A DNA stretch of 48,090 nt from an uncultured Bacilli bacterium (GCA_947626095.1 CANQQV010000012.1:1-48090), one strand, 5' to 3'; shown: positions 8,620 through 43,420, numbered from the stretch's first letter. The notes: generated from the sequence alone by a model not told the origin. A program made the numbers and translations.

Positions 8620-8691
8620 ATTTATATTTATAGCTTTTAAATTTTTGTTGTGTTATAATTTAATAGAATAGGGGACTTAGGAGGATAAAGA

Positions 8692-10527
8692 ATGAGCGAT
8701 AGTTATTATGATGAAACAATAGAAAAAGAAAAAAGAAAAATTAATGTTTTGGTACGTGTAATTGATGTAGCTATGGATTACTTAGAACCAAAGAATAAAC
8801 GTAAACAAAATATTATACATTCAGCATGGACAAAAGTTAAATATGCAGAAAACGCTAAAGAAAGAAACGCAAGGTTAGCTACTTTTTTACATGTTTTAAA
8901 TGAGAAAGATGCGTTTAAAGAAAAAGCGACTACTTCACATGAAATAAGTCAGACTTTACGTAATAGACTTAGAGGAACTAATATTGAACTTGATTATAAT
9001 GAATTTAGTACTTATGGTTATGAAATAAGTGGTCAAGTTAAATTGGCAATTGCAAAGTTTGCTAGGGAGTATGTTGATGCTGTTAATCATATAGATAGTT
9101 TGAGACGTCAGAAGGAAAGCCAAAATAAGAGAGAACAAGAAAGGCAACATCAAGAGGAATTAGAAACTTTTAAAGAACAAAGCAAAGCTAGCAGTACGCC
9201 AAAATATGATGATGTTTATGCTAGTGTTACTAGTTATGAGAGTGATAGTAATAAAAATATAAATGTTTTGGTTAATGGTCAAGTTATTTTTCACAATTAT
9301 GATGAATTTGAAGTTCGTGAAAAGAAGGCTATTGAATATTTAGAAAGAAAAATTGCGACAACAAGAGCAAGAAGCTATGGCAAGTTTTTCTTAACGACTG
9401 AAGAAGAAAAAATGTTAAATCGTGTTTTAGGCGAAGGTAAAAGTTTGAGAGTTGGATCTTTATTAGAAGAAGGTTTATCAATGCGAGATGTTTTGTTTCG
9501 CTTACAACAATATGAACGAGATTCAAAGATTCCATTTAAGAAAACTGTTTATCGACCTAATTTAGGTGACGTTTTAATGGTGGCAAGTTCAGTTTATTTA
9601 TATTTACCTGATGAATTATTTACACCACTTTCAAATTCAGATGATCAAGCTAAGTTTGAAACTAGACTTCGTAATATTTCTGGTATGAGCAAAGGTTTAG
9701 AAACTTATGAAAAGATATATGCAATGTATTTAAATTATTTTAATGGATTGCCTGATGAAGAAAAGAATAAGATTAAAACTTCATTTATGACTGAGGGTGC
9801 TTACGAGTATTATAAGAAACAATTTAATATTACTTCATTTGAAATAGTTAGTCCTTCTAAGCTTAAAGTTTTGGTGAATTCAAAAATTAAAGATAAGATG
9901 TTAGAAAGTTTTTCAATGTATATGAGTAGTTATCATTATAATGACTTACTTAGGGCTGTTACTTATATGAGTATTGAAGAAGTTGCTAGTTTGTATTCAG
10001 CAATTAAAGCTATACATATTACATATTCACCAATAGATTATACTAGAGATGTAGATAGTCAAATAGCTGGTCAAGAATGGCTTATTCGTGAATTATTAAA
10101 TAACTTTGTTAAGGTTATTTTAGTTAAAATGAATTTGGGTAATTTATCTAATGAAGAAAAAAATAAGAAAGTTGAATATATAGTTAAAGAAATATTACAT
10201 GAAAATATCAGCTTGGAGATTAGTGGACCACAAGAAGAAAATACTCCTGTAGAAGAAGATACTAAAGAAGATAAAACTGTTAAAAGTAGTGATGGAATGT
10301 ATCATTATGTAGCTGGTGGCAAGGAGCAAAAAACGACTAATAAAGCGATGGCAGCAAGATATAATGCCCAAAATCGTTTTTTTGGGATGAGTAAACTTGA
10401 ACAAACAGCTGCTCGTATGTCAGGTAAATGGGGAAAATTTAAACAAATGTGGGAACAAGCGGCAACTATGGATAAAGAAAAACAAGATGAGGTTGCGCAA
10501 AAGCTTGATTTAATGTTTAGGAGGTAA
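8692..10527 (+). CDS. Hypothetical protein (611 aa, helical/coiled-coil, soluble)
   Basis: Long ORF, RBS AGGAGG, TGTTATAAT upstream; no recognisable motif. Confidence 0.85.
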   Translation: MSDSYYDETIEKEKRKINVLVRVIDVAMDYLEPKNKRKQNIIHSAWTKVKYAENAKERNARLATFLHVLNEKDAFKEKATTSHEISQTLRNRLRGTNIELDYNEFSTYGYEISGQVKLAIAKFAREYVDAVNHIDSLRRQKESQNKREQERQHQEELETFKEQSKASSTPKYDDVYASVTSYESDSNKNINVLVNGQVIFHNYDEFEVREKKAIEYLERKIATTRARSYGKFFLTTEEEKMLNRVLGEGKSLRVGSLLEEGLSMRDVLFRLQQYERDSKIPFKKTVYRPNLGDVLMVASSVYLYLPDELFTPLSNSDDQAKFETRLRNISGMSKGLETYEKIYAMYLNYFNGLPDEEKNKIKTSFMTEGAYEYYKKQFNITSFEIVSPSKLKVLVNSKIKDKMLESFSMYMSSYHYNDLLRAVTYMSIEEVASLYSAIKAIHITYSPIDYTRDVDSQIAGQEWLIRELLNNFVKVILVKMNLGNLSNEEKNKKVEYIVKEILHENISLEISGPQEENTPVEEDTKEDKTVKSSDGMYHYVAGGKEQKTTNKAMAARYNAQNRFFGMSKLEQTAARMSGKWGKFKQMWEQAATMDKEKQDEVAQKLDLMFRR

Positions 10528-10529
10528 GT

Positions 10530-10820
10530 ATGCAAGAAGATTTTAATAGTTATATGGAATTTTTTAAGAGTCAGCCTCTAAAAGAAAAACAAAGTATTGT
10601 TATAGAACAGTTAAAAATGTTAGCTGGTTTAACTAATAATATGTGTAAGGAATTAGATGTTAATAATGAGTTATTGCTAAATAAGGAAATAGTAGATTTA
10701 AATAATGGTGATTATACGGAAGATGACTTTGCTGAAGCTTTAATTGTCTATATTAATTCTATTCAAAATTCATTATGTGATTTTAGTAATAAGTTGTCTG
10801 ATGTTGCTGAAAACATCTAA
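10530..10820 (+). CDS. Hypothetical acidic protein (96 aa)
   Basis: RBS AGGAGGT inside the upstream gene end, 2 nt after its stop. Confidence 0.85.
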   Translation: MQEDFNSYMEFFKSQPLKEKQSIVIEQLKMLAGLTNNMCKELDVNNELLLNKEIVDLNNGDYTEDDFAEALIVYINSIQNSLCDFSNKLSDVAENI

Positions 10821-10870
10821 GTATTTATCATTTATTTGATTATGCTTGAAGAAAAAAGATATTTAAGTTT

Positions 10871-10902
10871 AGATATTCTATATTGATAGAATATCTTTTT
10901 TT
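10871..10902 (+). terminator. Rho-independent terminator
   Basis: AGATATTCTA-6 nt-TAGAATATCT then T run. Confidence 0.7.
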
Positions 10903-10963
10903 GTATTTATTTATTTAAAAAAATATGATAAGATGGTATTGATATAATAAAGAGGTGTTGGTT

Positions 10964-12955
10964 ATGTTTGGTAAGATTAAGTTTATATCTGGTAACGTTG
11001 CCCATGTTGAAACTGTAGCTAAAGCTGAAGAATTAGGAGATTTAATGAATGTTCATGTTGTTTTTGAAGCTCCTGATCAATTAATACTTGGGGAAGTAGA
11101 AGAAGTAACTGATGAAGTTATTAAAATAAGATTTTTAGGTGAATTCCAAAATGGTCGTTATGTATCAGGTGTTATTCGTAAACCGGTTTTATCTAGTACA
11201 ATTAGAACAATTAATGATCAAGAATTAAGAGCAATAGTTGGAGTTTATGATGATACAACGTTTAAAGTTGGTCAAAGTTCTATATATACTGATTATGAAG
11301 TATGTGCTGATATTAATAACTTATTTGCTAATCATATGGCTGTATTTGGTAATACTGGTTCAGGTAAATCATGTGGTGTAGCAAGAATTGTACAAAATAT
11401 TTTTTCTAATCCTAAGTTAATATCATATAATGCTAATATTTTTATTTTTGATGCTTATGGTGAATATAAGACAGCTTTTAGTGGTTTAAATAAATTAAAT
11501 CCTAATTATAGTTATAAATTTATTACAACTAATATTCAAGAAGATACTGATTATGAACTTAAAATACCTTTTCATTTACTTAATTTAGATGATTTAACTA
11601 TTATGTTACAAGCTGATAAACATAGTCAAATACCTATTTTGGAAAGAGCTTTAAAGCTAACAAGAATATTTAGTAAAGATGATGAAGTAGCTGAAAAATA
11701 TAAAAACCATTTAATTGCTAAAGCTTTAATCGCGATTTTATATAGTAATCAGATTACGGCTAATAAAAAGAATGATATTTTTAAAGTACTTGAAGTTTGT
11801 CATACTAAAGATTTTGATTTTGATAGTGTTATTCAAGGTTTAGGTTATACAAGAACTTTGTCTGAATGTTTTGAAATTGATAGTAATGGTAACTTCGGTG
11901 AATCTGTTTTAATTACTGATTATATTTTGGATCATATAGATGAAGCAATGGAAATGACTGAAGAACCAGTTAATGCTTTCTATTCAATGAGAGATTTTTC
12001 TCAAGCTTTAGAGTTTACATTAATTAGTGAAGGTTTCCAAAATAATGAGCAGTTATATGATGATTCAATGTTACTTAAGGTTAGATTAAATTCAATTTTA
12101 AATAGTAAAATTGCTAATATATATAAGAGTGATAATTATATTTCAACAGAAAGTTATATTGCTTCATTAGTAGCTGTTGGTAATAAAAAAGCTCAAGTTA
12201 TTAATATTAACTTAGAGGATATCGATGATACGCAAGCGAAGATTATCGTTAAGATAATAGCAAGAATTTTCTTTGATTTCTGTAAAACAAGAAAACAAAG
12301 AGCGACAATTCCTTTCCATTTGTTTTTGGAGGAAGCGCATAGGTATGTTCAAAAAGATGCCGATGTATTCTTAATTGGTTATAACATATTTGACCGTATT
12401 GCTAAAGAAGGTCGTAAGTATGGCGTACTTTTAAATATTATTTCGCAAAGACCTGTTGAAATATCTGAAACAGTTATTGCCCAATGTAGTAATTTCTTAA
12501 TCTTTAAGATGACACACCCTCGAGATATTGAGTATATTAGAACAATGTTGCCTAATATTTCGGCTGATGTTATTGAAAAACAAAAGATTTTACAACCTGG
12601 TAACTGTGTTGGATTTGGTCAAGCGTTTAAGTTACCAATGGTTATTAAGATGGAAATGCCTAATCCAGCGCCTAACTCTAACTCATGTGATGTAAATAAC
12701 TGTTGGCGTATTCAAGGTAATATTGCAAATTCGGCAGCTAATAATGTACCTAGTGCTCCAACTACGACAGTAGCACCTACTAATGGTCCGACGACAACCT
12801 TAGCACCAACGGCTACGCAAAGTACGGCTAAACCAGATTTAATGAGTCCTAGTCCAATTCAAGTAAATCAGCCAACTGATGCTACCTCAACTGGTTTTAA
12901 TGCTGCTCCGGTTAATGGGGTTGTTAATCCGAATTTTATACCACCAGTTAGTTAA
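10964..12955 (+). CDS. HerA/DUF87-family (FtsK-HerA superfamily) ATPase with N-terminal beta-barrel and P/T/N-rich tail
   Basis: HMAVFGNTGSGKS Walker A, IFDAYGEY, LFLEEAHRY Walker B, IAKEGRKYG, SQRP; likely start ATG 10964. Confidence 0.9.
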   Translation: MFGKIKFISGNVAHVETVAKAEELGDLMNVHVVFEAPDQLILGEVEEVTDEVIKIRFLGEFQNGRYVSGVIRKPVLSSTIRTINDQELRAIVGVYDDTTFKVGQSSIYTDYEVCADINNLFANHMAVFGNTGSGKSCGVARIVQNIFSNPKLISYNANIFIFDAYGEYKTAFSGLNKLNPNYSYKFITTNIQEDTDYELKIPFHLLNLDDLTIMLQADKHSQIPILERALKLTRIFSKDDEVAEKYKNHLIAKALIAILYSNQITANKKNDIFKVLEVCHTKDFDFDSVIQGLGYTRTLSECFEIDSNGNFGESVLITDYILDHIDEAMEMTEEPVNAFYSMRDFSQALEFTLISEGFQNNEQLYDDSMLLKVRLNSILNSKIANIYKSDNYISTESYIASLVAVGNKKAQVININLEDIDDTQAKIIVKIIARIFFDFCKTRKQRATIPFHLFLEEAHRYVQKDADVFLIGYNIFDRIAKEGRKYGVLLNIISQRPVEISETVIAQCSNFLIFKMTHPRDIEYIRTMLPNISADVIEKQKILQPGNCVGFGQAFKLPMVIKMEMPNPAPNSNSCDVNNCWRIQGNIANSAANNVPSAPTTTVAPTNGPTTTLAPTATQSTAKPDLMSPSPIQVNQPTDATSTGFNAAPVNGVVNPNFIPPVS

Positions 12956-12981: not shown

Positions 12982-13040
12982 TTTGTCAAGAAGAGGTAAA
13001 GAGTATTTTGTTTTAGTATAAGGTATGATATAATTAAATT

Positions 13041-13215
13041 ACTCAAGGATAAATGCTTACTTTTTATTAAAAACCGAGTAAGTGATTATAAGGGAGTCTA
13101 ATTGATTTGTGGTGTTGAAGACCTTGCTTTTTAAGTGTAGGGATCCTAAAGCAAAACATGTGACACCCACCTGTGTGGTGCAGGTTTTTTATTCACTAGT
13201 GAGCATCCCTTGAGT
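13041..13215 (+). ncRNA. ssrS: 6S RNA
   Basis: Paired ends ACTCAAGG/CCTTGAGT, Firmicute 6S motif GACACCCACCTG...GCAGGTT, TGnTATAAT at 13026-13034, ~175 nt, and position upstream of tcdA as in B. subtilis aspS-6S-yrvM-yrvN. Confidence 0.85.
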
Positions 13216-13240
13216 TTTTATTTGGAATCTTGGTGAAGAT

Positions 13241-17947: not shown

Positions 17948-17978
17948 AAAAAGAGAACCTTATTGGTTCTCCTTTTTT
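17948..17978. terminator. Bidirectional terminator
   Basis: AAAAAGAGAACC-TTATT-GGTTCTCCTTTTTT between convergent genes. Confidence 0.8.
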
Positions 17979-18114
17979 AGTTACATTCTCTTTTAGAGTT
18001 ACTAGAAGATCTAACATTTGTTCTTTCGTTAGCGTTTGAACGTTGTTCGTTAGCTCTATTATTACTTTTAGAACTTTTATTGCTTCTAGAACTTTGATTT
18101 TCTTTTCTGCTCAT
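17977..18114 (-). CDS. Small 45-aa S/N/R/K-rich protein (below ORF-track cutoff)
   Basis: MSRKENQSSRSNKSSKSNNRANEQRSNANERTNVRSSSNSKRECN; perfect AGGAGGT RBS 6 nt before ATG; ends at a terminator. Confidence 0.8.
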   Translation of the reverse strand: MSRKENQSSRSNKSSKSNNRANEQRSNANERTNVRSSSNSKRECN

Positions 18115-18215: not shown

Positions 18216-18944
18216 ATGAAAGAATATTATCCATTAATTATAAGTAGTATAGCAGGTTTAGGGACATTACTAGGTAATATCTTATTATTTATTAAAAATA
18301 AAGATAAGAATAAAATATTAGCTTTAGCTTTAGGTTTATCAAGTGCCGTAATGTTTTTAATATCAGTATTAGAATTAATTCCAGAAGGTTTATTATTAGT
18401 AAGTAGGGAAGTTAATTATATTGTTTTATTATTTTATTCGTTAGCTTTACTGTTTATTGGTTTTATAATAGTTAATTTAGTAGATAAGAAAATTAATAGT
18501 ACGGATTCAGTATATAAAATAGGGATTTTAAGTATGATAAGTTTACTAATACATAATATACCGGAAGGGGTAGTGTGTGCTTTAACTAGTTATAGTAATT
18601 TAGATTTAGGTTTAAAAATAAGCTTTATTATAATGGTCCATAATATTACGGAGGGAATAGCTATTTGTTTACCAATTTATTATGCAACAAATAATAAAGT
18701 TAAAGCTTTTTTATTTACCCTATTTAGTGCAGTGGGGGAGATATTTGGAGCTTTAATTACTATTTTATTATTAAAACCATTTATCAGCTCTTTTCTCCTT
18801 TATGTAATATTAATAATTACAGCTGGAATGATGATTAGTTTAAGTATAGGTAAAATATTTGTTGAAGGAATTAAGTTAAAAAAAAATTTATATTTTATGA
18901 TAGGAATCGTAATTGGTATTAGTGTTGTATTATTTACTTTATAG
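18216..18944 (+). CDS. ZIP-family metal transporter (ZupT-like)
   Basis: Multi-TM with HNIPEG and HNITEG motifs. Confidence 0.9.
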   Translation: MKEYYPLIISSIAGLGTLLGNILLFIKNKDKNKILALALGLSSAVMFLISVLELIPEGLLLVSREVNYIVLLFYSLALLFIGFIIVNLVDKKINSTDSVYKIGILSMISLLIHNIPEGVVCALTSYSNLDLGLKISFIIMVHNITEGIAICLPIYYATNNKVKAFLFTLFSAVGEIFGALITILLLKPFISSFLLYVILIITAGMMISLSIGKIFVEGIKLKKNLYFMIGIVIGISVVLFTL

Positions 18945-18982
18945 ATAGAGAATACATAGTTATTTTCTTTAAATTTATTATC

Positions 18983-19010
18983 GGTTAACATAATATATAT
19001 TATACGAAGT
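18983..19010 (-). other. dif-type XerC/D recombination site
   Basis: Minus strand ACTTCGTATAA-TATATA-TTATGTTAACC; 11-6-11 layout close to B. subtilis dif ACTTCCTAGAA-TATATA-TTATGTAAACT; in a long non-coding gap ~1.7 kb from the xer gene. Confidence 0.85.
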
Positions 19011-19149
19011 TAGGTTAAATTATTAAAAGATTACTTAATTACTTATATTATACCTTATTTATAGATGGTTTTGTTACCTATTATTTAGTTATTTTTATTT
19101 ATATAGATGAATAATTGGTTTTTAAAATTAATTTATTAATTATTTTACG

Positions 19150-19178
19150 TTACAACATTTGTTCGTATTATATATAAT
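19150..19178 (+). promoter_or_regulatory. sigmaA-type promoter overlapped by a LexA (Cheo)-box-like site
   Basis: TTACAA(19150-55)-17 bp-TATAAT(19173-78); ACAAC-ATTT-GTTCG (19152-65) versus consensus CGAAC-N4-GTTCG. Confidence 0.45.
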
Positions 19179-19185
19179 ATATTAT

Positions 19186-19435
19186 ATTAGGAATCGAATT
19201 TATAAAAGATGATATCTTCTTCACTTCATGGAATATCCACTATTTAAATTAGGAATCGAGATTTAAAAAGATGATTAGTTCTCCATCTCGAATTCAATTA
19301 TTTTTGGACTATTTTAGAGACTTTTGATAATAGAATGATTATTTATACTATTTTTGCTATTTGCTTTGAAAATAGGTGCTTAAAATTAGGAATCGAGAAT
19401 TCTTTAGATGATTAGTTGTTCATCTCGTGGAATAT
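19186..19435 (+). repeat. Three imperfect ~50-nt direct repeats (possible degenerate fourth near 19313)
   Basis: ATTAGGAATCGA-N9-AGATGAT at 19186, 19248 and 19385, each followed by a pyrimidine-rich segment able to pair back with AGATG(A). Confidence 0.85.
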
Positions 19436-19478
19436 TTTGATTTTAGATGTATTTAGTTATTTTAAAAATAGTTAAGAC

Positions 19479-19522
19479 TCCCCTCTTGAATTTTAATTTT
19501 TGAAGAGGGGACTTTATTTTTT
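19479..19522 (+). terminator. Terminator closing the repeat-containing unit
   Basis: TCCCCTCTT...AAGAGGGGA followed by CTTTATTTTTT. Confidence 0.7.
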
Positions 19523-19705
19523 AAAATTTATAGTTAATTTGATGATTTGTATGTAATTATAATTTTTATAAATTTTAATATTGAGATGTAGTTTATATTG
19601 TTTTTAGTTTGAAAAGAGGAAACGAGATGATTGGATGATCACTTTTTTAATTCTCGTTTCCCCTACTTCCTATGGGTTTTAATAGGGGAATTAAAAAAGA
19701 AAGGA

Positions 19706-20473
19706 TTAAACCTTTCTTGATTGGATTTCAGCAATTTTTTCAAATACTTCAGCAGCATTAGATTCATTAATTTCAGTGTAACCTAATTCTTTTAAAGCTT
19801 GAATCTTAATTGTATTTAATTGTTGAGTACGAGATAATTTTTCTTCATTTTTTTGTTCAATTTCTTGAACGAAACGTTTATGAGATTCTGCTAACTTACT
19901 ACGAGAAGCACCGCCATTATTATATAGCGTTAAAGCTGAGTATAAAATACCTTCAAAAATAAATTGTTTATCTTCTTGGAATTTATATTCTTCAGGATTA
20001 GTAAAGCCAGTTGTTTTACTCATGTAGCCGAATATATATTTAATTTCAGGAACATTATCTAAAGATTGTAATAGATGATATAGGTATAATATCGCATAAT
20101 AGTTTTCTTCATGGTTATCATTAGTTAATTTTTCTTTTAATAAGTAAGTAATATCACTTAATAGGATTTGTGATTCTTTATTTAAACCTTTAAAATCGAA
20201 TTGACTTTCAAATTCACTAGCATTTTTAACTTCTTGATTTAAACGACTTTCAACACTCATTAAGTAATCGGTCGTGATATTAATTTCATCAATATCTTTA
20301 CTATCACTAATATCTAATAATTTAAATAATAATAATTTCTTTTCTTTTGGCCATTTATTAATATCATTTAGCTCTAAATAGTTATATACCATTTGACGAG
20401 ATACTCCTAAATATTTTGCCAATCTAACTTTGGATATTCCTAATTCTTGAAATAATTCATTTAATTTACGCAT
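19706..20473 (-). CDS. Cro/XRE-like helix-turn-helix protein with long helical C-terminal domain
   Basis: ISKVRLAKYLGVSRQMVYNY HTH at N-terminus. Confidence 0.8.
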   Translation of the reverse strand: MRKLNELFQELGISKVRLAKYLGVSRQMVYNYLELNDINKWPKEKKLLLFKLLDISDSKDIDEINITTDYLMSVESRLNQEVKNASEFESQFDFKGLNKESQILLSDITYLLKEKLTNDNHEENYYAILYLYHLLQSLDNVPEIKYIFGYMSKTTGFTNPEEYKFQEDKQFIFEGILYSALTLYNNGGASRSKLAESHKRFVQEIEQKNEEKLSRTQQLNTIKIQALKELGYTEINESNAAEVFEKIAEIQSRKV

Positions 20474-20550: not shown

Positions 20551-20578
20551 AAAAAACTAGTTATAAAATAACTAGTTA
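20551..20578 (-). terminator. Terminator of the AAA ATPase operon
   Basis: AACTAGTTAT-loop-ATAACTAGTT with U tract on the minus strand. Confidence 0.75.
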
Positions 20579-22072
20579 AGCGTTTTTAGAGGCATTAATG
20601 GCTCTTTCTTGGCCCCATTTTCTAATTTCGTTTATTTTTTCAGGGTTAGTCTTAGATAAGGAAACGACTTTAGATAATTCTTCAGTAATTAAGTTTTCTG
20701 ATAAAGTTAATTCTTTATTAGCAATTAATTTATAAGCAATTGAACGCATGGTAGCTTCAATATCTGAACTAGCAAAGCCAGTAGTTATAGTGACTAATTT
20801 ATTTAGTAAGTTCTCCCCTAGTTCAACTTTTAAGTATTTGCGGGCATACAACTTTAGAAGTTCTAATCTTTCGTTATTATTTGGTAGATCGACAAAGAAG
20901 ATTTCATCAAAACGACCTTTTCTGACTAATTCTGGAGGTAATGATTCAATACTATTAGCTGTAGCGATGACAAAGACTGGTTTTTGGCATTCTTGAAGCC
21001 AAAATAAGAATTGACCAATCATTTTGGAAGTAACACTAGAGTGGGAATCATTTAAACCTTTTTCGATTTCATCAATCCATAGGACACATGGGGAAACGTA
21101 TTCAGCTGTATCTAAAGCTTGTTTTAATTGTCTTTCTGATTGACCAACGTATTCGCCTTGGACGGTAGCTAAATCAAGATGATATAGTGGAATATTGAAG
21201 ATATTAGCAGCAGCTTTAGAGCATAAACTTTTACCACAACCTGGAACACCTGTAAGTAAGATACCTTTTGGCGATGCTACTCCCCTTTTCTGTAGCTCCT
21301 CTTTTTTAGTTGGATCCATTAAAGTCTTTTTTTCATATAACCATTCTTTTAAAGTATCGAGACCAGCAATTTGGAAATTATCATCAATTGGTACAGACTC
21401 TAAACCAGCGATATCACTAAATAAAGTTTGTTTAGCAAATTTTAATTCTTTTAGATCATCTTTAGTAATTGTACCTTTAACAATTAAAGAGGAAATAATA
21501 TTTTTAATTTCCATTTCACTTAAACCTTGTAAGTACGTAGCAGCATTTTTATAATCATTTTCATCCCAATCAATAGTGATCTGGTTATTATATGGTTTGA
21601 TTGTTTCTTTAATACCTTCTAATATTTCAGTATCAGTTGGGAAATTAAGTTTTAAGCTAACACCTAGTCTTTTGATATTCGGCCATACTTCTTCATTAGT
21701 TATAATGATGATTACACCAGATACTTTTTCCGCTTTTTCGGCAATATTTAATAAGTAACGAGAGACAATTGATGATTCGTTAATATCAGATATATCACTA
21801 ATAATAAAGTTATAGTTTTCTTTGTATTTTAATTCGTTAGATAAGGTGTCTAAAGCACTCATTATTGTTTTATCTTCACTAATAACCGTATTAGTTTCTA
21901 AATCAGTAATACCACTAGACATTTCATATAAACTAAATTGATTATTGGTATTTTTAGCGACTTCACTAATTAATCTTATAATACGATTTTTTTCGATAGT
22001 ATTTAAGATAATTATTGGGATACGAGCTTTTAAGTATCTTGTTAAATATTCTTTTACTTCATTATAATTCAT
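20576..22072 (-). CDS. Ycf46-like AAA+ ATPase (degenerate N-terminal domain plus active C-terminal AAA module)
   Basis: [49 protein letters not shown]; likely ATG 22072. Confidence 0.92.
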
Positions 22073-22508
22073 TATTATCACTCCATTTTATTCGATTATT
22101 ATTTATGATAAGAGCCATAGCTCCACTTTTATCTTCAATATTAGCTTCTTTGATTAAGATTTCATATGTTTTGTCTGTTTCATCTTTGATGGTATTAATT
22201 AGGGTTTGTTGTTCTTCAGGAGTTAAGATGGTAATATCAATCATTTCTTTAAGATATTTTATTTCTTTTTTAAAATTAACTAAGATGATGTCTAAGTAAT
22301 TAATATCATCAAAGATTGTTGTTAAAGCTGATTTAATCTTTTTGACTGATTCACTAAACTTGTAGATGATGACATCACGATATTTTTCACTTAGAAGTTC
22401 TTGTAAATTACTATTTACGGGAGAATTCTTAAGTTTATTTAATAATTCATTATTATAGTTGGGGGTTTTGAGTTTTTTAAAGAGTTCTAAATATTCTTCG
22501 TATGTCAT
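22062..22508 (-). CDS. Hypothetical helical protein (148 aa) in AAA operon
   Basis: Overlaps both neighbours (translational coupling). Confidence 0.8.
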   Translation of the reverse strand: MTYEEYLELFKKLKTPNYNNELLNKLKNSPVNSNLQELLSEKYRDVIIYKFSESVKKIKSALTTIFDDINYLDIILVNFKKEIKYLKEMIDITILTPEEQQTLINTIKDETDKTYEILIKEANIEDKSGAMALIINNNRIKWSDNNEL

Positions 22509-36097: not shown

Positions 36098-39000
36098 TTA
36101 TTCAGTTGGTATAACAAATTCTGTTACTTGTTGTGGTTTATTTTTATCATAAACTTTACCATTAAAGTCATCTGTACCATTTTTGATAGTGTAGTATAAG
36201 TCTTGACGTACAACTGTACTGTTATTAAAGTTTTTAACTTTACTATTAATTATATAATTATTACGATTTGCAACATAATTATCACTATCTACTGGGTATT
36301 TTTCTTCAGCTTCTTGGCGTTTAGTTATTACGGCTTTGGCATCTTCACGTAAAGCATTGTAGAATCTAATAAAGTAGTCATTGACATTTATTTGTTGAAT
36401 ATATGCTAAATTGGTTTTTACTTCATTAAATCTTTGCTGACGATAGACTTTGAAGGTTATGTTATTATTTCCAGTGATGGTTTGAAGTGCCATTAAGTCA
36501 GTTTTATAATCAACGTTTGATTCTTTTTTGTTTCCATTGTCATCAAAGACATAACTCTTACCGTCTGAGGCAACATTAGCTATAGTTTTTTTAATAGAAT
36601 TACGATTACTATAGTATTCAATGTAGCCTGCATCATAACCGGCATAACCTAACATTTCATAAGCCCACCATTTGATACTATATGAGTCTGGTCGTCCTTC
36701 ATCGTTATGTGGCATGTACCAACGAACTTGGTTAATATTTGGACCACCGTAGCGATTAGTTGTAATAGTTGAAGCGATGACACCTGGGTACATAACTAGA
36801 TGATGGTCATATAAATCATCAAGGGTTTGAATATTCCAACTCTTGTATTCTTCTAGTGATACTTCAGAATAGAATGAATGTTGACGTTTTAAGTATTCAT
36901 GACCAGCTAAAGTATTAGTTTTTTCGCGTGGATATGTTACTTCTACAACTAAAGCTGCTTGTTCTTCAACTGGTAGTTTTAAGAAGGCTTGGCCTTCAAT
37001 ATAATCCATAATATAAACTGTATCAAATAGTTTTTGATAGAAGTCTTGGATTTTAGCTGGACTATTAATTCGATCTGGCGTTAAATTAGCGGCGATACGA
37101 TCACCTTTATTATAACGACTTGATAAGTTCATAACAATATCGGCTGGACCAAAGCTTTGAGTTAAGTTACCATCAGCATAGTCTTCACCACCGGCATCGA
37201 AACGACGACCATAGTTCTTTAAGAACAATCTAGCATCCATATTATGAGCTGTTTCATGAGACCAAGTACTATATGTCCAATTACCATCTAAACAACCTTC
37301 AGCACGCCAAATGATATATGCACCGTTGGCTGTTGCAGCATTGCCGTCTGGATAAGCCCACTGACCTATTACTTCGTTAAAGTTTTTATGGAATGGTTCT
37401 TCTGTTGAATATGGATTTTGATTAGTTAGAATTCCATTTTCGTAGGTAAATCTCTTATCTATCTGAATTGTATGAATACTATTAAATACTTCAGCATCGT
37501 TAATAATTAAAGCGGTTGTATTATAATAATCACTCATTCTCGTTGTATAGATAGCTACTCTTTCTTGGAAGGCTTTTTGCTCTTCGGCGTTAAATGGATC
37601 ATTAATATATGTTCTTTCAGCACCGATGACAAATTGACCTGGGGTAGAGATAATATAAGCCGCTCTTTCTGGAAGAGTTAAGATTGGTAAGGCATAATTA
37701 TACCATGTAACACCCGTATTTTTGTCTTGAGTTTTAATATGATCCCATAAACGATATTCAATGTCAGGACGGTTTTTAACGTCTAATTCAACTAAATATC
37801 CTTTAAATTCTTTAGCAAACCAATCAGCAGTTTTTTCTTTAGTTAATGTTGTAACTAAATAGTCTAAGAAGTTTGGTATATTACTTTGTTTAGTGTATTT
37901 ACTTAAGATATTTGTATACACATCGCTTGTACGATTAGTTTCGAAGTTTTTACTATCTTTTAAGTAAGCATTAACGATATTTTTAGTATTCATTTCACTA
38001 TCAAAGCCTGTACTATCGAATAGAATAAAATCATATAGTTTCATACCGGCAATATCAATATCATAGAATCTTCTAAAATAATTATAAACGTATAAGGTTT
38101 TAATGAAGTTTTCATCGTCTTTGATTTCTCTTTCAAGGTAATCACTAATTGCTTCGTTAGTATTACCATTAGCTTGATTTGTAATAGATATATATTTTAA
38201 GACAAATTCACGTAGTTCTTTTTTAGTTGTATCGTTATAGAATTCTTTATATAGACGACTATCAGATCCAGGTGTTAAAGGATCTAAATTATCATCGTAA
38301 TTTAGATTATTTAGATAATTGGTTAAATTATTGACTAGTTGTGAATTGTTATCGATTAGATAGTGATTAAAGGTATAATCAGTTTTTAATGATGTTATAC
38401 GATAGCTAGCAACCATGTCATATAATTTATCAAATTTAACTTCATATTCTTCGAGTGTATTATCTTCATAAACGATTTTTAATTTAGTTATTTTATTATA
38501 ATCACTAGTAGTTAAATAAGTTACTATATTACCGTTTGTATCAAGTGGTATTAAATGTTTGATATTCTTAGTAGCTAAGTTACTATTATTACTGATATTC
38601 TTGGCATTTTTGGCGATTTTCTTACTGTCATAGAATGGTGTTAATTTTATTAAGTTACCGTATAGATGGTATTCTTTTTCTTCTTCGTAATCATCGATAA
38701 CTTGGTCTAAGTCTAAGATTGAGTTTGTTTCAGCCATGAAGATTGGATAACCTTCATATATCGCGGTACTCATGTTCCAAATTTTTGTGTCGAAATGGGC
38801 TTGCTGGTAAATTTCGATAATGGCTTCATCACCAATGTGGAATCTAACATTAGTTACACCATTTTCAGTCGATTCTTTATCTTCTTGTAGTAAATTATAG
38901 TTATTTCTAATTTCTTTAGCGTTGTTAGTAAAACCATTATTAGCTTGACCATATTTGGCGACATTATCAATGAAGGTTGAAGTTGGCGATGAAGAGCATG

Positions 39001-42000
39001 CAAAGTAGCAGGAAATATTTGCTATTTTAGCTGGTCCATTATTTATTTCAACGGCAGCAATATTATTTTTTAATTCACTATTTGTGGCATTGCCAACTAA
39101 GCCACCGATATAATCAGTATTAGCAGTTATTGTACCAATAGCGATGTTATTATATAATTTAGAATTTTCTAATTTACCAACTAAGCCACCAGTATTTTGG
39201 CCTTCGTCTGTTCCTTTAATATTAATGTTATTGATTTTAGATTTTTCAATTAAGGAATTATTAGTTGCTTCCCCTACTAAACCACCAACTTTTTCAGTAC
39301 TATTATTAATATTTAAACGATTAATATTAACATTTGATATTGTAGTATTACTGATTGAATTAGCTATTGCACCTTTATATTTACTATCATTTAAGTTAAT
39401 TGTATCTAGTTTTAAATTTTTAATTGTGCCATTTTTAATTGTTTTAAATAATGGACGATCTAGATTTTTAATACGATAGTTATTACCATTAAATGTACCA
39501 GTATATTCGACATCAAAGATATAATCAGTACTGATATCAAGAGTTGATAAATCAAGATCGGCACCTAAAGTGATATTAGATGATGGATCTTTTTTGATTT
39601 GGTCGATTATTTGAGAAATCGTTGCGGGACGAGCACTATTTGTTACTTCGCCGTTTTCAATTAAGCCAAAGTCGATTCTTAAATCTTGTTTTTCTTCATT
39701 TTTTTCACGAATAACATATTCATAATCTAGAACAAGAATTAAGTGATTATTTTCTTTTAGAACACGTTTAATTTTAGCATGAACAGTTGGTAATTTGGCC
39801 ATATTAATTTTAACAAAGTAGTTTTCAGGATGTGCTTCAATGTCACTAACTGTAACTGTTTCGATAGCTGTTATTTTTTCGATTGTATTTTTATATAAAG
39901 TGACATCAGTTATTTTTTTCATTTCGATATAATTTTTATCTAAGGAGATTACTTCATCTAAAAGTAGAACATTAGTAAAATGATTTATATCATCGATTTT
40001 AATATCACGATCATAATTACCATATACTTTAACGTAGTATCTAATTGTACCATCTTTATTAATAGTTATTTCTTTGTTGAATGGATATGATGCAATTAGT
40101 TCATTATCTTCATTGTATAGATTTACTTTGACATTATCTTCTAAACGATTATAAACGGCATTATCATTATCTTTAAGATTTAACTTGATTTTAACATTAT
40201 CTTCGTTATCTTCGAATTTAAAGTCATAGATACTTATTTTATCTTTTAAGACTTCAATTTGAATACTATTATTATCTTTTAAAGATATTTTTTTACCATT
40301 ACTTAAGATTAAGTCAGTAATGATTAAATCTTTAAGACCAGCAGTATTATAGCCATCTATTTCGGCTTCGTATGTATCATCGTTTTTAGTTAATTGATAT
40401 TCTTTACCTTCGACAATTATGCGATCTAAGTTTGATAATTCGTTATTTTTGATTTTAAAACTAAGTTTTATTTTAGATAATTTTTCAAAATATCTATTGT
40501 TTTGGCCGTTAGTAGTTATGTCACTTAATTCGATATTGGCGTATTTATCTGTGTTATATAAGCCGTATGTTGTTTGATATATTTCAGTGTCTGTATAGTA
40601 ATTAGTAGGTTTTTCTTCAGTTATAGTATTTGTATCTAAATCATATGTTCCATTGAAGGTTAAGTTTAATTCTTCGTCTTTTGGAACTTGAGTGAAAGTT
40701 ATTTCGTTTTCACCATATTTTATTTCATGTGTTTCTTCACCTAAAGTTACGGTACCTTTTTCAAAACCACCTTTATCATCTTGAACATAGAAACGGAATT
40801 TTACTGTGCCATTTGTATAATCTTCATCAAGAATTTTTAAATCTTTGATGGAAGGTTTATCTTTTAAAACATCGATTTTAGTTTCATAAGGAGCAACAGC
40901 AAAATAGGCTTGGCTGATACCTTGGTATGATTCAACTGCTAGTTTAACACGGGTAATATTTAAATTAATAATTCCTGATTCGTTTGGAATGGTAAAGGTA
41001 ATTGTTGTGCCACCATCACCAGTTTCGCCATTAACGGCATTGGTTCCACCATCATAATTTAAGCCATTAATTGTCGCTCCAGAAATGCGGTTATATTTTT
41101 TTCTTAGTTCTGGACTTATATTAACGTATATTTTTATTTGATATTTAGTTTGTCCTTTAGTTGGATATGGGGTTAATTCAAACTTATTATTTTGATTTAT
41201 TTTACCAACTTCAATTTTCGTTATTTTAACGTCGGTTTGCGTCACAATTGCTTTTTCGCCAACATTTACTTCATTGTATGTATGACGGTCTGTTCCTAAG
41301 TTATAGTCGGCTAAAAACTTTACTTGGTATCCACCTGATATATTGTCTTTGTATGATACTGGTATACGGTTACCATTTTGGACGTCATTTAGTTTAGTAA
41401 TTAATTTATTATTAGAATCTACTAAGACTAAATTTAAATGACTTAGAGTTTTATCTTGATCAACGACATGGTAATCGACATATAATTGTTCATTACTTTT
41501 ATCATCTTCAATTTTAATATTATCGACTTTAGGACCAACTTTTAGAACCGTATAACTTAAAGGATTCATGTTATAATCTTGATTAAGATTAAAGACTTTA
41601 TAATTACTTATTTCGATTTTATCAATATTGATATGGTAACGACCGAAAGTATCAGTGTTTAGATCTGTTAATTCAACTTGATAGTGATTTTTTTCATATT
41701 TGGGAGTTGCTTTATATCGATGACCATCTATTTCGATATATTCAACTGTATATCCCTTGTTGTTGGTACTTGTAAATTCAATTATTGGTTTTTGGCCTTT
41801 TTCAATTGCATCTGTTATAGAAATGTTTGATATTTTAAAATCATAGTTACTATTAATTGATAAAGTATGATTATATATTTGTTTGTCTTCATATAGATTT
41901 TTATTACCTGTTATACTATTTAGATCATTAGTATCACGGTCATAAGTAGCAAATATTTGAATGGTATAATCTTGTTCTTTTACAAATTCATAAGTAATAC

Positions 42001-43420
42001 TATTTTCTTTAGCAAGATCATTACGATATACTTCTTTATTTTCTTTATCTTCGATTATTATATAACCATTTTTAAAACTATTTTCTTTATCTTGTAAGAT
42101 GAAAGTTAAAGTGTCTGTTTTCTCATCGAAATTGAATTCATCAACGTAAGGTTCATCTTTTAAAACCTCTTTGATAATGATTAGTTCGGTTTTAATTTCA
42201 CGATTATTGACTAATTTAGCTTTGGTAAATTTAAATTCATGAACACCAGAAGTTTTAGGTGTATCTAAAGTAACCGTATAGTAATTGTTATTATATACTA
42301 CTGGGTAATATTTACCATCAATCATTACTTCTTTAATTTTTTCATTTGGTGTTACGGTAGCACTAAATTCAAGTGTTATTTTTCCTTTTTCGGTATATAA
42401 GTTGTCATTGCTTTCTTTACTTCTTAAAGTTACTTTGTAATTAGTCTTTTCGGTTGTATTACCAGCACTATGACCAGCATCATTAACATCTACTTTGCCA
42501 TCATTATTAACATCGTATTTATTAGATGGTTTACTAGGTTTTACGGTAGTTGAATTTTGATTATTGTTATGATTGTTATTTTCGTTATTATTTTCATTTT
42601 CTTCAGAACTATTTTCTTCTTGTGGTTTTGTACCCTGCATGTTAATTAAGTATTTTAAAATTTCTTTAGCATCATTATAATCTTTATTACCGTCGTTATT
42701 AACATCTTTTTTAGCATCGTTGAATATTAATAATGTACTTAATAAAATGATGAAAATAGCTAATGCTGCACTGGTTAAAATGATAATTTTTTTATCTCTT
42801 TTTTTGATTATGATAAAGATTAAACTAATTAATAATAGTACAGTACCAATTGCGGCACCGATAACTATTGGTTCATTAGTAAAAACTTTGATAATTTCTT
42901 CTTTAGCTTCATTAAATGTTATTTTATTGTTATTTGGGATTGTTTCTTCATCTTTGGCATCACGATTTATTGTCAATTCAACATTGGCATTTTTAAAATT
43001 TGTTTTATTTGCACCATCAGATGAAGAAATATTAGTTAAAGTTATGTTTGTAGTACCGGCTGTGGCATTTTTCTTAACTCTTAAACGAATACGAAATAAA
43101 CTATTAGATATTTCACCAGTTTTATTGATTAAACCGAAACGATTATTTTCTGGATTATATAATAATTCAACAACGTCTTCTTGACCAACAAAGTTTTCGT
43201 TTGATATTTCTTCGAAGACATTTTGGTCATATTTTAAAGTAGCAGTTAGAGCATATAACTTTAGATCTGATGGAATTTCAGCATCAACAGTTACAACATC
43301 ACCAGCTTCTAAATCGCTTTTATCTACTTTTAATGTAACTTCGTTATTGGCTAAGGTTAAAACAGGAAATAACAAAATTGTTAGAATAATAATAAAGAGT
43401 AATTTTTTAATATTTTTCAT
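36098..43420 (-). CDS. Giant surface zinc metalloprotease, M26 (IgA1 protease/ZmpB/ZmpC-like)
   Basis: Signal peptide, two internal TMs, GLUG-like VGGLVG repeats, HETAH (37244-37258) followed by YGRR..GGEDYADG typical of M26. Confidence 0.9.
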   Translation of the reverse strand: MKNIKKLLFIIILTILLFPVLTLANNEVTLKVDKSDLEAGDVVTVDAEIPSDLKLYALTATLKYDQNVFEEISNENFVGQEDVVELLYNPENNRFGLINKTGEISNSLFRIRLRVKKNATAGTTNITLTNISSSDGANKTNFKNANVELTINRDAKDEETIPNNNKITFNEAKEEIIKVFTNEPIVIGAAIGTVLLLISLIFIIIKKRDKKIIILTSAALAIFIILLSTLLIFNDAKKDVNNDGNKDYNDAKEILKYLINMQGTKPQEENSSEENENNNENNNHNNNQNSTTVKPSKPSNKYDVNNDGKVDVNDAGHSAGNTTEKTNYKVTLRSKESNDNLYTEKGKITLEFSATVTPNEKIKEVMIDGKYYPVVYNNNYYTVTLDTPKTSGVHEFKFTKAKLVNNREIKTELIIIKEVLKDEPYVDEFNFDEKTDTLTFILQDKENSFKNGYIIIEDKENKEVYRNDLAKENSITYEFVKEQDYTIQIFATYDRDTNDLNSITGNKNLYEDKQIYNHTLSINSNYDFKISNISITDAIEKGQKPIIEFTSTNNKGYTVEYIEIDGHRYKATPKYEKNHYQVELTDLNTDTFGRYHINIDKIEISNYKVFNLNQDYNMNPLSYTVLKVGPKVDNIKIEDDKSNEQLYVDYHVVDQDKTLSHLNLVLVDSNNKLITKLNDVQNGNRIPVSYKDNISGGYQVKFLADYNLGTDRHTYNEVNVGEKAIVTQTDVKITKIEVGKINQNNKFELTPYPTKGQTKYQIKIYVNISPELRKKYNRISGATINGLNYDGGTNAVNGETGDGGTTITFTIPNESGIINLNITRVKLAVESYQGISQAYFAVAPYETKIDVLKDKPSIKDLKILDEDYTNGTVKFRFYVQDDKGGFEKGTVTLGEETHEIKYGENEITFTQVPKDEELNLTFNGTYDLDTNTITEEKPTNYYTDTEIYQTTYGLYNTDKYANIELSDITTNGQNNRYFEKLSKIKLSFKIKNNELSNLDRIIVEGKEYQLTKNDDTYEAEIDGYNTAGLKDLIITDLILSNGKKISLKDNNSIQIEVLKDKISIYDFKFEDNEDNVKIKLNLKDNDNAVYNRLEDNVKVNLYNEDNELIASYPFNKEITINKDGTIRYYVKVYGNYDRDIKIDDINHFTNVLLLDEVISLDKNYIEMKKITDVTLYKNTIEKITAIETVTVSDIEAHPENYFVKINMAKLPTVHAKIKRVLKENNHLILVLDYEYVIREKNEEKQDLRIDFGLIENGEVTNSARPATISQIIDQIKKDPSSNITLGADLDLSTLDISTDYIFDVEYTGTFNGNNYRIKNLDRPLFKTIKNGTIKNLKLDTINLNDSKYKGAIANSISNTTISNVNINRLNINNSTEKVGGLVGEATNNSLIEKSKINNINIKGTDEGQNTGGLVGKLENSKLYNNIAIGTITANTDYIGGLVGNATNSELKNNIAAVEINNGPAKIANISCYFACSSSPTSTFIDNVAKYGQANNGFTNNAKEIRNNYNLLQEDKESTENGVTNVRFHIGDEAIIEIYQQAHFDTKIWNMSTAIYEGYPIFMAETNSILDLDQVIDDYEEEKEYHLYGNLIKLTPFYDSKKIAKNAKNISNNSNLATKNIKHLIPLDTNGNIVTYLTTSDYNKITKLKIVYEDNTLEEYEVKFDKLYDMVASYRITSLKTDYTFNHYLIDNNSQLVNNLTNYLNNLNYDDNLDPLTPGSDSRLYKEFYNDTTKKELREFVLKYISITNQANGNTNEAISDYLEREIKDDENFIKTLYVYNYFRRFYDIDIAGMKLYDFILFDSTGFDSEMNTKNIVNAYLKDSKNFETNRTSDVYTNILSKYTKQSNIPNFLDYLVTTLTKEKTADWFAKEFKGYLVELDVKNRPDIEYRLWDHIKTQDKNTGVTWYNYALPILTLPERAAYIISTPGQFVIGAERTYINDPFNAEEQKAFQERVAIYTTRMSDYYNTTALIINDAEVFNSIHTIQIDKRFTYENGILTNQNPYSTEEPFHKNFNEVIGQWAYPDGNAATANGAYIIWRAEGCLDGNWTYSTWSHETAHNMDARLFLKNYGRRFDAGGEDYADGNLTQSFGPADIVMNLSSRYNKGDRIAANLTPDRINSPAKIQDFYQKLFDTVYIMDYIEGQAFLKLPVEEQAALVVEVTYPREKTNTLAGHEYLKRQHSFYSEVSLEEYKSWNIQTLDDLYDHHLVMYPGVIASTITTNRYGGPNINQVRWYMPHNDEGRPDSYSIKWWAYEMLGYAGYDAGYIEYYSNRNSIKKTIANVASDGKSYVFDDNGNKKESNVDYKTDLMALQTITGNNNITFKVYRQQRFNEVKTNLAYIQQINVNDYFIRFYNALREDAKAVITKRQEAEEKYPVDSDNYVANRNNYIINSKVKNFNNSTVVRQDLYYTIKNGTDDFNGKVYDKNKPQQVTEFVIPTE

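Follow-up and report, generated by a model that had tools for sequence, protein, structure and literature searches.

Bacterial RNAs composed of tandem, similar hairpin modules are exemplified by the CsrB/RsmZ-type sponge RNAs, and in the case of LhrC1-4 and Qrr, sibling small RNAs lie in tandem. ToxI-like type III antitoxins consist of near-identical direct repeats of 34–45 nucleotides (nt), and arrays of clustered regularly interspaced short palindromic repeats (CRISPR) or of tandem interspaced guide RNAs (TIGR) place fixed motifs around a short, more variable segment. Repetitive extragenic palindromes (REP) and bacterial interspersed mosaic elements (BIME) are clustered imperfect palindromes found in either orientation near gene ends. 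At replication termini, comparable elements are known on the DNA level: in an archaeon, an SMC boundary depends on the intergenic sequence that surrounds dif between convergent genes, which is both necessary and sufficient and acts independently of Xer and dif via the DNA-binding protein TrmBL2; in bacteria, XerD-bound dif-like XDS sites unload Smc–ScpAB, both as reported in PMC11840125. Here, we describe a repeat locus (19150–19522) in a stretch of 48,090 nt from an uncultured Bacilli bacterium (GCA_947626095.1, CANQQV010000012.1:1-48090; the whole stretch is referred to as the window, and positions are counted from its first letter). Its repeats belong to a real, conserved family of ~60-base hairpin-forming units that lie beside dif in uncultured gut Bacilli and match no described RNA family. 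Each unit (~56–62 nt) consists of a nested inverted repeat whose 5′ half contains a ~10-nt A/T-rich bulge. The most likely reading, which we put forward tentatively, is that of a locus-specific structured small-RNA module that would bind a protein.

The units share certain features with each of the systems mentioned above. Like CsrB/RsmZ, the locus harbors tandem hairpin modules in variable number with a possible promoter and terminator of its own, and the modules of the window's clade contain GGA. However, these modules are larger and carry a fixed bulge, and their GGA lies in the stem flank rather than in the loop. An AGGA-based sponge, proposed in an earlier account made from the sequence alone (the sequence-only reading), is not supported by distant relatives, which have GCA for GGA at that position; a CsrA/RsmA sponge likewise finds no support, positions 10–11 of the unit being GG or GA in the window's clade and GC in distant units (TTTGCAWCGA). 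Direct repeats with A-rich borders, situated between a promoter-like site and a terminator, recall ToxI, but the units have a 62-nt period, are 73–83% alike, and occur most commonly as a single copy (31 of 50 genomes). The type III antitoxin suggested earlier also lacks its toxin: where a ToxI-like system would have a ToxN/AbiQ gene, the array of the first three units (c1–c3) is followed by an inverted unit (c4) and a convergent helix-turn-helix (HTH) gene. As in CRISPR and TIGR arrays, fixed motifs surround a more variable segment, and a guide array had therefore been inferred. This “9-nt variable segment” corresponds to the ~10 nt between the 5′ half-stems (positions 17–25), which are almost purely A/T (~93%, as estimated from column counts) and constitute a low-complexity linker forming the bulge, not an information-rich, unit-specific spacer; moreover, the units are not identical, the flanking “repeats” vary, and no Cas or Tas gene was seen among the scanned ORFs of the window. 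As with LhrC1-4 and Qrr, related hairpins are arranged head to tail at one locus and each position keeps its identity, yet at a spacing of 62 nt, most units could not have a promoter of their own. The XDS sites of Bacillus and the TrmBL2 boundary of Thermococcus resemble the units in lying beside dif, between convergent genes, at the terminus; they are, however, dif-like half-sites or A-tract-rich binding regions (PMC11840125) and not 62-bp bulged-palindrome arrays. In contrast to REP, which are scattered genome-wide, all 89 units lie at one intergenic locus within the 48-kb window and the flanks of the 80 loci searched. Rfam 15 contains no gathering-score match for the units, and the region 18900–19750 gives only chance-level matches to terminator hairpins at E ≤ 10. 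No match to the locus was found in plasmid and phage collections, and no description of the repeat element in the literature on dif and the terminus, Coprovivens, or XerD–SMC unloading. The inner palindrome presumably represents none of the Fur/Zur, FNR, cre, or DnaA-box sites, since spacing or key bases do not fit.

A conserved family of units beside dif

The three plus-strand units described at 19186, 19248, and 19385 are borne out by the 27-nt pattern ATTAGGAATCGA-N9-AGATGA, which has three exact matches in the window versus 0.00 expected (100 shuffles), and by a repeat search that yields three copies of 48 nt (73% and 83% identity to the reference copy; spacing of 62 and 137 nt). Covariance models—a first and a second one, explained below—place c1 at 19182–19243 (+; 55.5 bits with the first model, 52.2 bits and E 4.6e-8 with the second), c2 at 19244–19305 (+; 63.9 bits with the second model), and c3 at 19381–19442 (+; 66.4 and 63.3 bits). 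A fourth unit, the inverted copy c4, is found on the minus strand at 19608–19669 (43.8 and 42.3 bits). The sequence-only reading had overlooked it, together with the outer complementarity CGAGA/TCTCG and a second GC-rich hairpin. The 3′-ends of c1 and c3 consist of GGAAT, which in c1 stands in place of the closing strand. The outer stem of c2 is closed (GGAATCGAGA / TCTCGAATTC, 4/5 plus 5/5 pairs) and followed by a T-run (3′ flank AATTATTTTT), and that of c4 is closed as well (GGGGAAACGAGA / TCTCGTTTCCTC) and followed by TTTTC. A decayed unit suspected near 19313 could not be recovered, the best model matches in 19300–19380 reaching 2–6.7 bits (E ≥ 0.22) with filters off. The absence of an open reading frame (ORF) was confirmed in that none of at least 30 amino acids (aa) lies within 19000–19660. 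Upstream of the conserved box described below, on its dif side, a weak model match (19109–19156, +; 14.4 bits, E 0.004 when 901 nt were searched) possibly represents a relic unit. A resemblance at the 3′-end of the adjoining ZIP-family transporter gene (TAGGAATCGTAATT at 18901) was rejected, its score of 3.1 bits corresponding to chance.

Relatives of the locus were found by means of a profile of the HTH protein (alignment of 16 of the matches listed), and of 300 confirmed relatives, the best 80 loci were taken with up to 4 kb on each side of the gene. The sequence searched for units comprised 674,910 bases, i.e., the 48-kb window and ~8.7 kb per relative. A first covariance model, built from 29 units picked by the exact motif GGAAWCGA, gave 89 matches at E ≤ 1; after removal of ten (out-of-region, overlapping, or gappy and weak), the remaining 79 were realigned and used to build a second model. 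The latter identifies 89 units at E ≤ 0.01, distributed over the window and 49 of the 80 loci. All of them are located downstream of the HTH gene, and neither the rest of the window (47 kb) nor the other locus flanks contain any. The first model gave the same picture: in 56 of 56 loci, the best match falls downstream of the HTH gene and, where a dif-like site could be recognized, does not lie past dif. By the second model, 31 sources contain one unit, nine contain two, three contain three, four contain four, and three contain five; seven units with a period of ~60 nt were counted by the first model in one locus (L010). Within arrays all units are co-oriented. Across the family, 68 of the 89 units point toward the HTH gene, as c1–c3 do, and 21 are oriented as c4, both orientations occurring together only in the window and in L001; a GC-rich hairpin is always on the HTH side, whichever way the units face. 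In the remaining 31 of the 80 loci, no unit is detected by the second model at E ≤ 0.01, although the HTH gene is present in all of them. In three unit-less loci (L031, L056, L067), dif is situated just ~25–40 nt from the HTH terminator. Since the sequence past the HTH gene is shorter than 600 nt in six of the 80 loci, some of the absences cannot be judged.

The conservation of the units is best illustrated by the two closest genomes (L001 and L002; HTH protein 97–98% identical). Units c1–c3 are 79–91% identical to their counterparts (c1, 82–86%), as opposed to 49–63% for the spacers; both genomes harbor an extra unit between c1 and c2, and c4 is present in L001 and lost in L002. Gain and loss of units between strains, which the sequence-only reading had suggested looking for, thus occurs among close genomes. 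Each array position retains its own sequence across genomes, which argues that the units are old paralogues under constraint rather than a recent, decaying duplication. The repeats had been seen as a non-coding locus, and a strain-specific decaying tandem duplication as the finding that would speak against it; units that are conserved in 50 genomes, between spacers that evolve freely, agree with the former and not with the latter. Outside the array clade, the single unit takes the form TCTAATTTGCAWCGA – A/T linker – AGATGR – loop – YCATCTCGWTGCAA. Within the alignment of 79 units, G15 and A16 never vary, and conservation reaches at least 90% for T29, G30, A42, and T45.

Flanking signals and genomic context

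The interval 18945–19705, which holds dif, box, units, and hairpins, is enclosed by a convergent gene pair, the ZIP-family transporter gene (18216–18944, +) and the HTH gene (19706–20473, −). From the ZIP side, the order is dif-like site, ~140 nt of unconserved spacer, box and promoter-like site, c1, c2, c3, hairpin T1, c4, hairpin T2, and the terminator of the HTH gene. The box is located at 19152–19165 (+), with its core ACATTTGTTCG at 19155–19165. The exact 11-mer occurs upstream of the arrays in the window and in eight further loci, with 11 copies in total, and the box is 14/15 identical (93%) in L001 and L002 compared with 54–55% for the adjoining spacer. In Firmicutes, the LexA (Cheo-box) consensus is CGAAC-N4-GTTCG. 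The box matches it at 12 of 14 positions, and its conserved form is asymmetric ((T/A)AAC-ATTT-GTTCG in the 11 copies). The LexA-box-like site suggested earlier thus has an 11-nt core that is conserved across genomes, but its likeness to LexA sites involves two mismatches and near-matches occur in the window at chance level (8 versus 5.2 expected). No SOS genes were detected among the scanned ORFs of the window. In L010 and L012, a second, inverted box follows the terminator, so that array and terminator are bracketed by inverted repeats of 11–15 nt; the same two loci contain an extra lipoprotein-like gene between HTH gene and array, the region concerned being ~3320–4210 in L010 and ~4790–5580 in L012. 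The box was also considered as a Xer half-site or as the end of a miniature inverted-repeat transposable element (MITE) and rejected, because the sequence past TTCG is not dif-like elsewhere and a second box is found in only two of nine genomes. A one-mismatch copy of the box, likewise seen in L002, is contained in a 45-aa ORF (17977–18114, −) with a very high content of Ser, Asn, Arg, and Lys, located between the gene for a 217-aa protein and the ZIP gene.

The promoter proposed earlier, TTACAA-17-TATAAT (19150–19178, +), is present as a sequence, and the promoter scan lists it as GTTACA-18-TATAAT (10/12). Such sites are, however, as frequent in this A/T-rich stretch as in shuffles (7 versus 6.6 ± 2.7), and, even though TATAAT/TATTAT is kept in L001 and L002, the −35/−10 geometry is not kept in L002. 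Promoter and LexA-like box are to be regarded as putative. A second promoter-like site, TTGATA-16-TACTAT (19324–19351, +; 9/12), is weak and lies in the c2–c3 spacer, which is 60–63% conserved. The idea that each unit is itself a sigma-A promoter was rejected: the unit of single-unit species contains TTGCAT-17-GATAAT, but the hexamers are poor in array units and not at conserved positions, and nothing is conserved downstream.

The GC-rich terminator said to close the array was found as claimed. T1 (19479–19522, +; 79–87% conserved in L001 and L002, with its stem retained) has the build of an intrinsic terminator, with 12-bp arms at 19479–19490 and 19500–19511 that are 92% complementary, a 9-nt loop, and the run TTTATTTTTT. 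It is missing from the terminator-scan list because the scan is limited to loops of 8 nt. Arrays are followed by a conserved GC hairpin and T-run in the window, L001, L002, and L012, and a T1-like hairpin of the type ACTCCCCT...AGGGGA(C/G)T comes after units in many relatives. T2 (19660–19688, not assigned to a strand), a second CCCCT...AGGGG hairpin, overlaps the 5′-end of c4 with its 3′ half and is conserved in L001 and L002. A T1 motif, AGGGGACTT, recurs at 8670 within a 5′ leader, with a count not above chance; the sequence ATAGGGGACTTAG at 8668–8680 (+), which exactly matches the 3′ half of the GC hairpin after the unit of L045, immediately precedes the Shine–Dalgarno sequence within the 5′ leader of the gene at 8692. 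At the stop codon of the HTH gene lies a bidirectional terminator (19697–19718, both strands; eight pairs) of a kind for which 0.1 sites are expected in shuffles.

The dif-like 28-bp Xer site (18983–19010, no strand), which we take to resemble the Bacillus dif, belongs to the context rather than to the repeat family; it is 27/28 identical in close relatives. Among the 74 loci in which at least 600 nt follow the HTH gene, 63 have a dif-like site (no more than 5 mismatches in 26) within 2.6 kb downstream of it. In the window, genes are oriented rightward up to the dif region and leftward past it, and the XerD gene is only 2 kb away, from which it is concluded that the locus represents the replication terminus. 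The synteny XerD–(217-aa protein)–ZIP–dif–HTH is general (ZIP in 51 and XerD in 46 of the 80 loci), and adjacency to dif or the HTH gene alone therefore means little.

The HTH gene encodes a 255-aa protein with an N-terminal HTH that finds only weak Pfam HTH matches. Its family of 6198 relatives, the named ones being metagenome-assembled genomes of ‘Candidatus Coprovivens’ and ‘Bacilli bacterium’, is narrow and lineage-specific (324 representatives at E ≤ 0.001). The window belongs to a Candidatus Coprovivens-like genome. The AlphaFold2 model (mean predicted local distance difference test score 77.5) has no PDB match at E ≤ 0.001, the best one being ElrR at a non-significant E of 0.3 and a template-modeling (TM) score of 0.18. 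The gene possesses its own conserved canonical promoter (cTTGACA-17-TATAAT...TGTAAA), retained across species down to 75% protein identity, and no unit-like site was found in this region. The −10 of that promoter is, in the window, flanked on both sides by the arms of an inverted repeat, AATGTAT...ATACATT. Given that the HTH gene is present in every locus, including those without a unit, nothing beyond adjacency ties its product to the units. Scans of the neighbors against Pfam, NCBIfam, and PADLOC revealed no Cas, Tas, ToxN/AbiQ, or RelE-like protein; the stated lack of an adjacent Cas, Tas, or ToxN gene is hence confirmed, and the orphan RelE-like ORF mentioned as a candidate partner was not recovered.

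A few further features of the window deserve mention. Its sole gathering-level Rfam match is a 6S RNA (RF00013) at 13036–13221 (+; 48.2 bits versus a gathering score of 46.4). A 501-aa AAA ATPase (20576–22081, −), whose gene adjoins the HTH gene in only 14 of the 80 loci, resembles IetA, the ATPase component of the anti-phage system Iet (PADLOC, 96 bits); its score against NCBIfam IteA (66.5 bits) is far under the cut-off of 510, and the protease partner was not seen. At 8692–12955 (+), proteins of 611 and 96 aa without Pfam matches precede a 666-aa HerA-like (DUF87) ATPase, and the three may form a functional cassette. An ORF of 2440 aa (36098–43420, −) has no Pfam family at E ≤ 1e-5.

Pairing and the small-RNA reading

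In the proposed structure, outer arms formed by positions 9–18 and 43–52 (core CGAGA/TCTCG) enclose inner arms formed by positions 29–31 and 40–42 (TGA/TCA) with an 8-nt loop. The inner arms are often lengthened to AGATGA/TCATCT, the inner hairpin that had already been recognized from the sequence, and this extended inner stem competes with the inner portion of the outer stem. A U-run is often found 3′ of closed units. In the proposed register, 67.9–69.4% of the cells are paired, as compared with 32–47% when the partner is slid by 1–3 columns. The inner three pairs are 88–91% paired, the hairpin described previously thus being kept. Several pairs switch type (e.g., AU 21/CG 18; GC 34/AU 18; AU 39/GC 11/GU 19), and two compensating changes in the inner palindrome can be read by eye between L073 and L074. 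Covariation is nevertheless modest: cells changed on both sides amount to 101 versus 78 ± 6 in shuffles, a value reached by none of 500, yet this control ignores relatedness and the alignment had been fitted to the structure. With regard to alternative folds, a six-pair inner stem as the sole structure was rejected because position 44 covaries better with 17 than with 27, and a long outer stem combined with a short inner stem is preferred for the same reason, both being retained as alternatives. A 5′ A/U hairpin with GGAAUCGA in its loop was rejected as well (53.4% paired versus 53.5% in shuffles).

Apart from the limits of the shuffle control, a number of observations weigh against an RNA. 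The outer helix is just 57–62% paired, and in 16 of the 79 units, all in arrays, GGAAT replaces the complementary strand. For 22 hand-picked units from outside the array clade, RNAalifold returns only the six-pair inner stem (−3.5 kcal/mol; covariation term, 0.01). Single-unit folds in the window are inconsistent, with z-scores of +1.67, −0.06, −3.43 (c3, −17.0 kcal/mol), and −4.98 (c4, −22 kcal/mol), and the fold of the 340-nt array is unremarkable (z −1.38). G-U and A-C mismatches are about equally common (58 versus 67 in the outer stem and 43 versus 28 in the inner stem), so that their counts do not favor an RNA transcribed from the plus strand. The 21 units in reversed orientation occupy the same physical place, which leaves the GC hairpin upstream of them. 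The distance from box to −10 has ~25 extra bases in L002, i.e., the promoter geometry is not conserved. Finally, no partner protein for the units was identified among the neighbors.

Weighing the pairing evidence against its limits, we rank an RNA first, followed by a DNA array, terminators, micro-ORFs, and, last, a mobile relic. According to the small-RNA reading, a non-coding RNA carrying the modules would run from the dif side toward the HTH gene; its 5′-end would lie near the conserved box, and closed modules with U-runs as well as T1 would terminate it. Each module would offer a sequence-specific docking site for a protein, and tandem duplication (one to seven copies) would multiply these sites, enabling the RNA to bind or titrate several copies of its partner. 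Such an RNA would not guide by base pairing. The data show the module, its conservation, its confinement to this locus, and its changes in copy number and orientation, whereas transcription, the strand used, protein binding, and control through the box are inferred.

Alternative readings and implications

The main rival, possible but less probable than an RNA, corresponds to the iterons for a terminus protein that the sequence-only reading had named as its alternative. The units would constitute a double-stranded DNA array of bulged palindromes (core TGA-N8-TCA inside CGAGA...TCTCG) at the terminus beside dif, bound by a dimeric protein—possibly the neighboring HTH protein—that stalls or unloads SMC complexes, forks, or RNA polymerase, or aids Xer recombination. 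This view is supported by the conservation of particular bases more than of pairs, by the missing excess of G-U over A-C together with weak thermodynamic and RNAalifold support, by the finding that units of either orientation occupy the same physical position between dif and the GC hairpin, and by the location of all units within a few hundred bases of dif, where gene orientation flips. Published analogues are the SMC boundary that flanks dif in an archaeon and the XDS sites of bacteria (PMC11840125). However, the HTH gene is found in every locus whether or not a unit accompanies it, its conserved promoter region contains no unit-like site, and the synteny from XerD to HTH is general. Moreover, a symmetric dimer site needs neither a strand-asymmetric A-rich bulge nor strict co-orientation within arrays, and some pairs switch type in a compensating way. 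The more specific proposal, by analogy, that the units are DNA sites of an undescribed bacterial terminus-specific nucleoprotein element, in which a dedicated protein, perhaps the HTH protein, would make a roadblock to SMC, forks, or RNA polymerase at dif, is unlikely, and so is its corollary that such an element would be the bacterial counterpart of the archaeal boundary.

Given that no plus-strand terminator-like site was found between the ZIP stop (18944) and the units, one may ask whether the units are essentially just intrinsic or bidirectional terminators between the convergent ZIP and HTH genes, multiplied by slippage and serving solely to stop transcription into dif or the opposing gene. 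Closed units with upstream A-runs and downstream U-runs (c2, c4, the last unit of L010, L071, L066, and L080), their stacking with T1, T2, and the HTH terminator, and the tolerated inversion would fit this account. Its probability is low, though, as ordinary terminators do not hold individual bases, a 10-nt bulge, and the length of the loop constant between genomes whose HTH proteins share only 75% identity; 16 units have no closing strand at all, about a third of the closed units inspected lack the U-run, and spacers evolve freely whereas units do not. Far less probable still is the notion that each unit encodes a micro-peptide from the near-invariant NTG (MISCSSRGIF in c3, MDNYPSRCKF in distant relatives), with a signaling or leader function and perhaps read by the HTH regulator as in RRNPP systems. 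The near-invariant T29 and G30 (column 28 being A, T, G, or C), ten-codon frames with the same stop place in seven single-unit species, a few synonymous differences between close species, the convergent arrangement with the HTH gene, and a weak Rgg-like top fold match (E 0.3, TM 0.18) brought it into consideration. Yet codon periodicity is absent (column entropy 1.03, 1.11, and 0.93 at codon positions 1, 2, and 3), third positions are the most conserved, with invariant third bases of TCA and TCT, and no usable Shine–Dalgarno sequence is present, AGGA lying 16 nt from NTG as against 5–10 nt upstream for window genes. In some units, the start position is occupied by ATA, CTT, or ACG, the frames range from ~4 to more than 25 codons, the fold match is not significant, and the TPR-like domain combined with a translated short ORF that characterizes RRNPP/Rgg systems was not found. 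The least credible account regards the block as a relic or miniature mobile element targeting dif, either similar to integrative mobile elements exploiting Xer (IMEX) or a MITE with terminal inverted repeats. Presence, inversion, and copy number do vary at one site beside dif, inverted boxes flank array and terminator in L010 and L012, and a degenerate dif-like stretch follows the window box (19165–19182 by dif search, ~19158–19186 by eye). But the second box is confined to two of the nine genomes, the post-box sequence is not dif-like in the others, there is neither a recombinase nor cargo nor a match in the plasmid and phage collections, and unit positions keep their identity between genomes, which fits vertical descent.

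The present result removes the guide-array, type III antitoxin, and AGGA-sponge readings from discussion. Should the units act as DNA, they would represent a new kind of terminus-organizing site beside dif in bacteria. Should they act as RNA, as we tentatively prefer, they would constitute an undescribed multi-module small RNA in widespread uncultured gut Bacilli, in which module duplication, loss, and inversion would be readable across ~50 species and which may have a conserved operator-like box. The unit itself is a compact, conserved, and experimentally tractable motif of ~60 nt.

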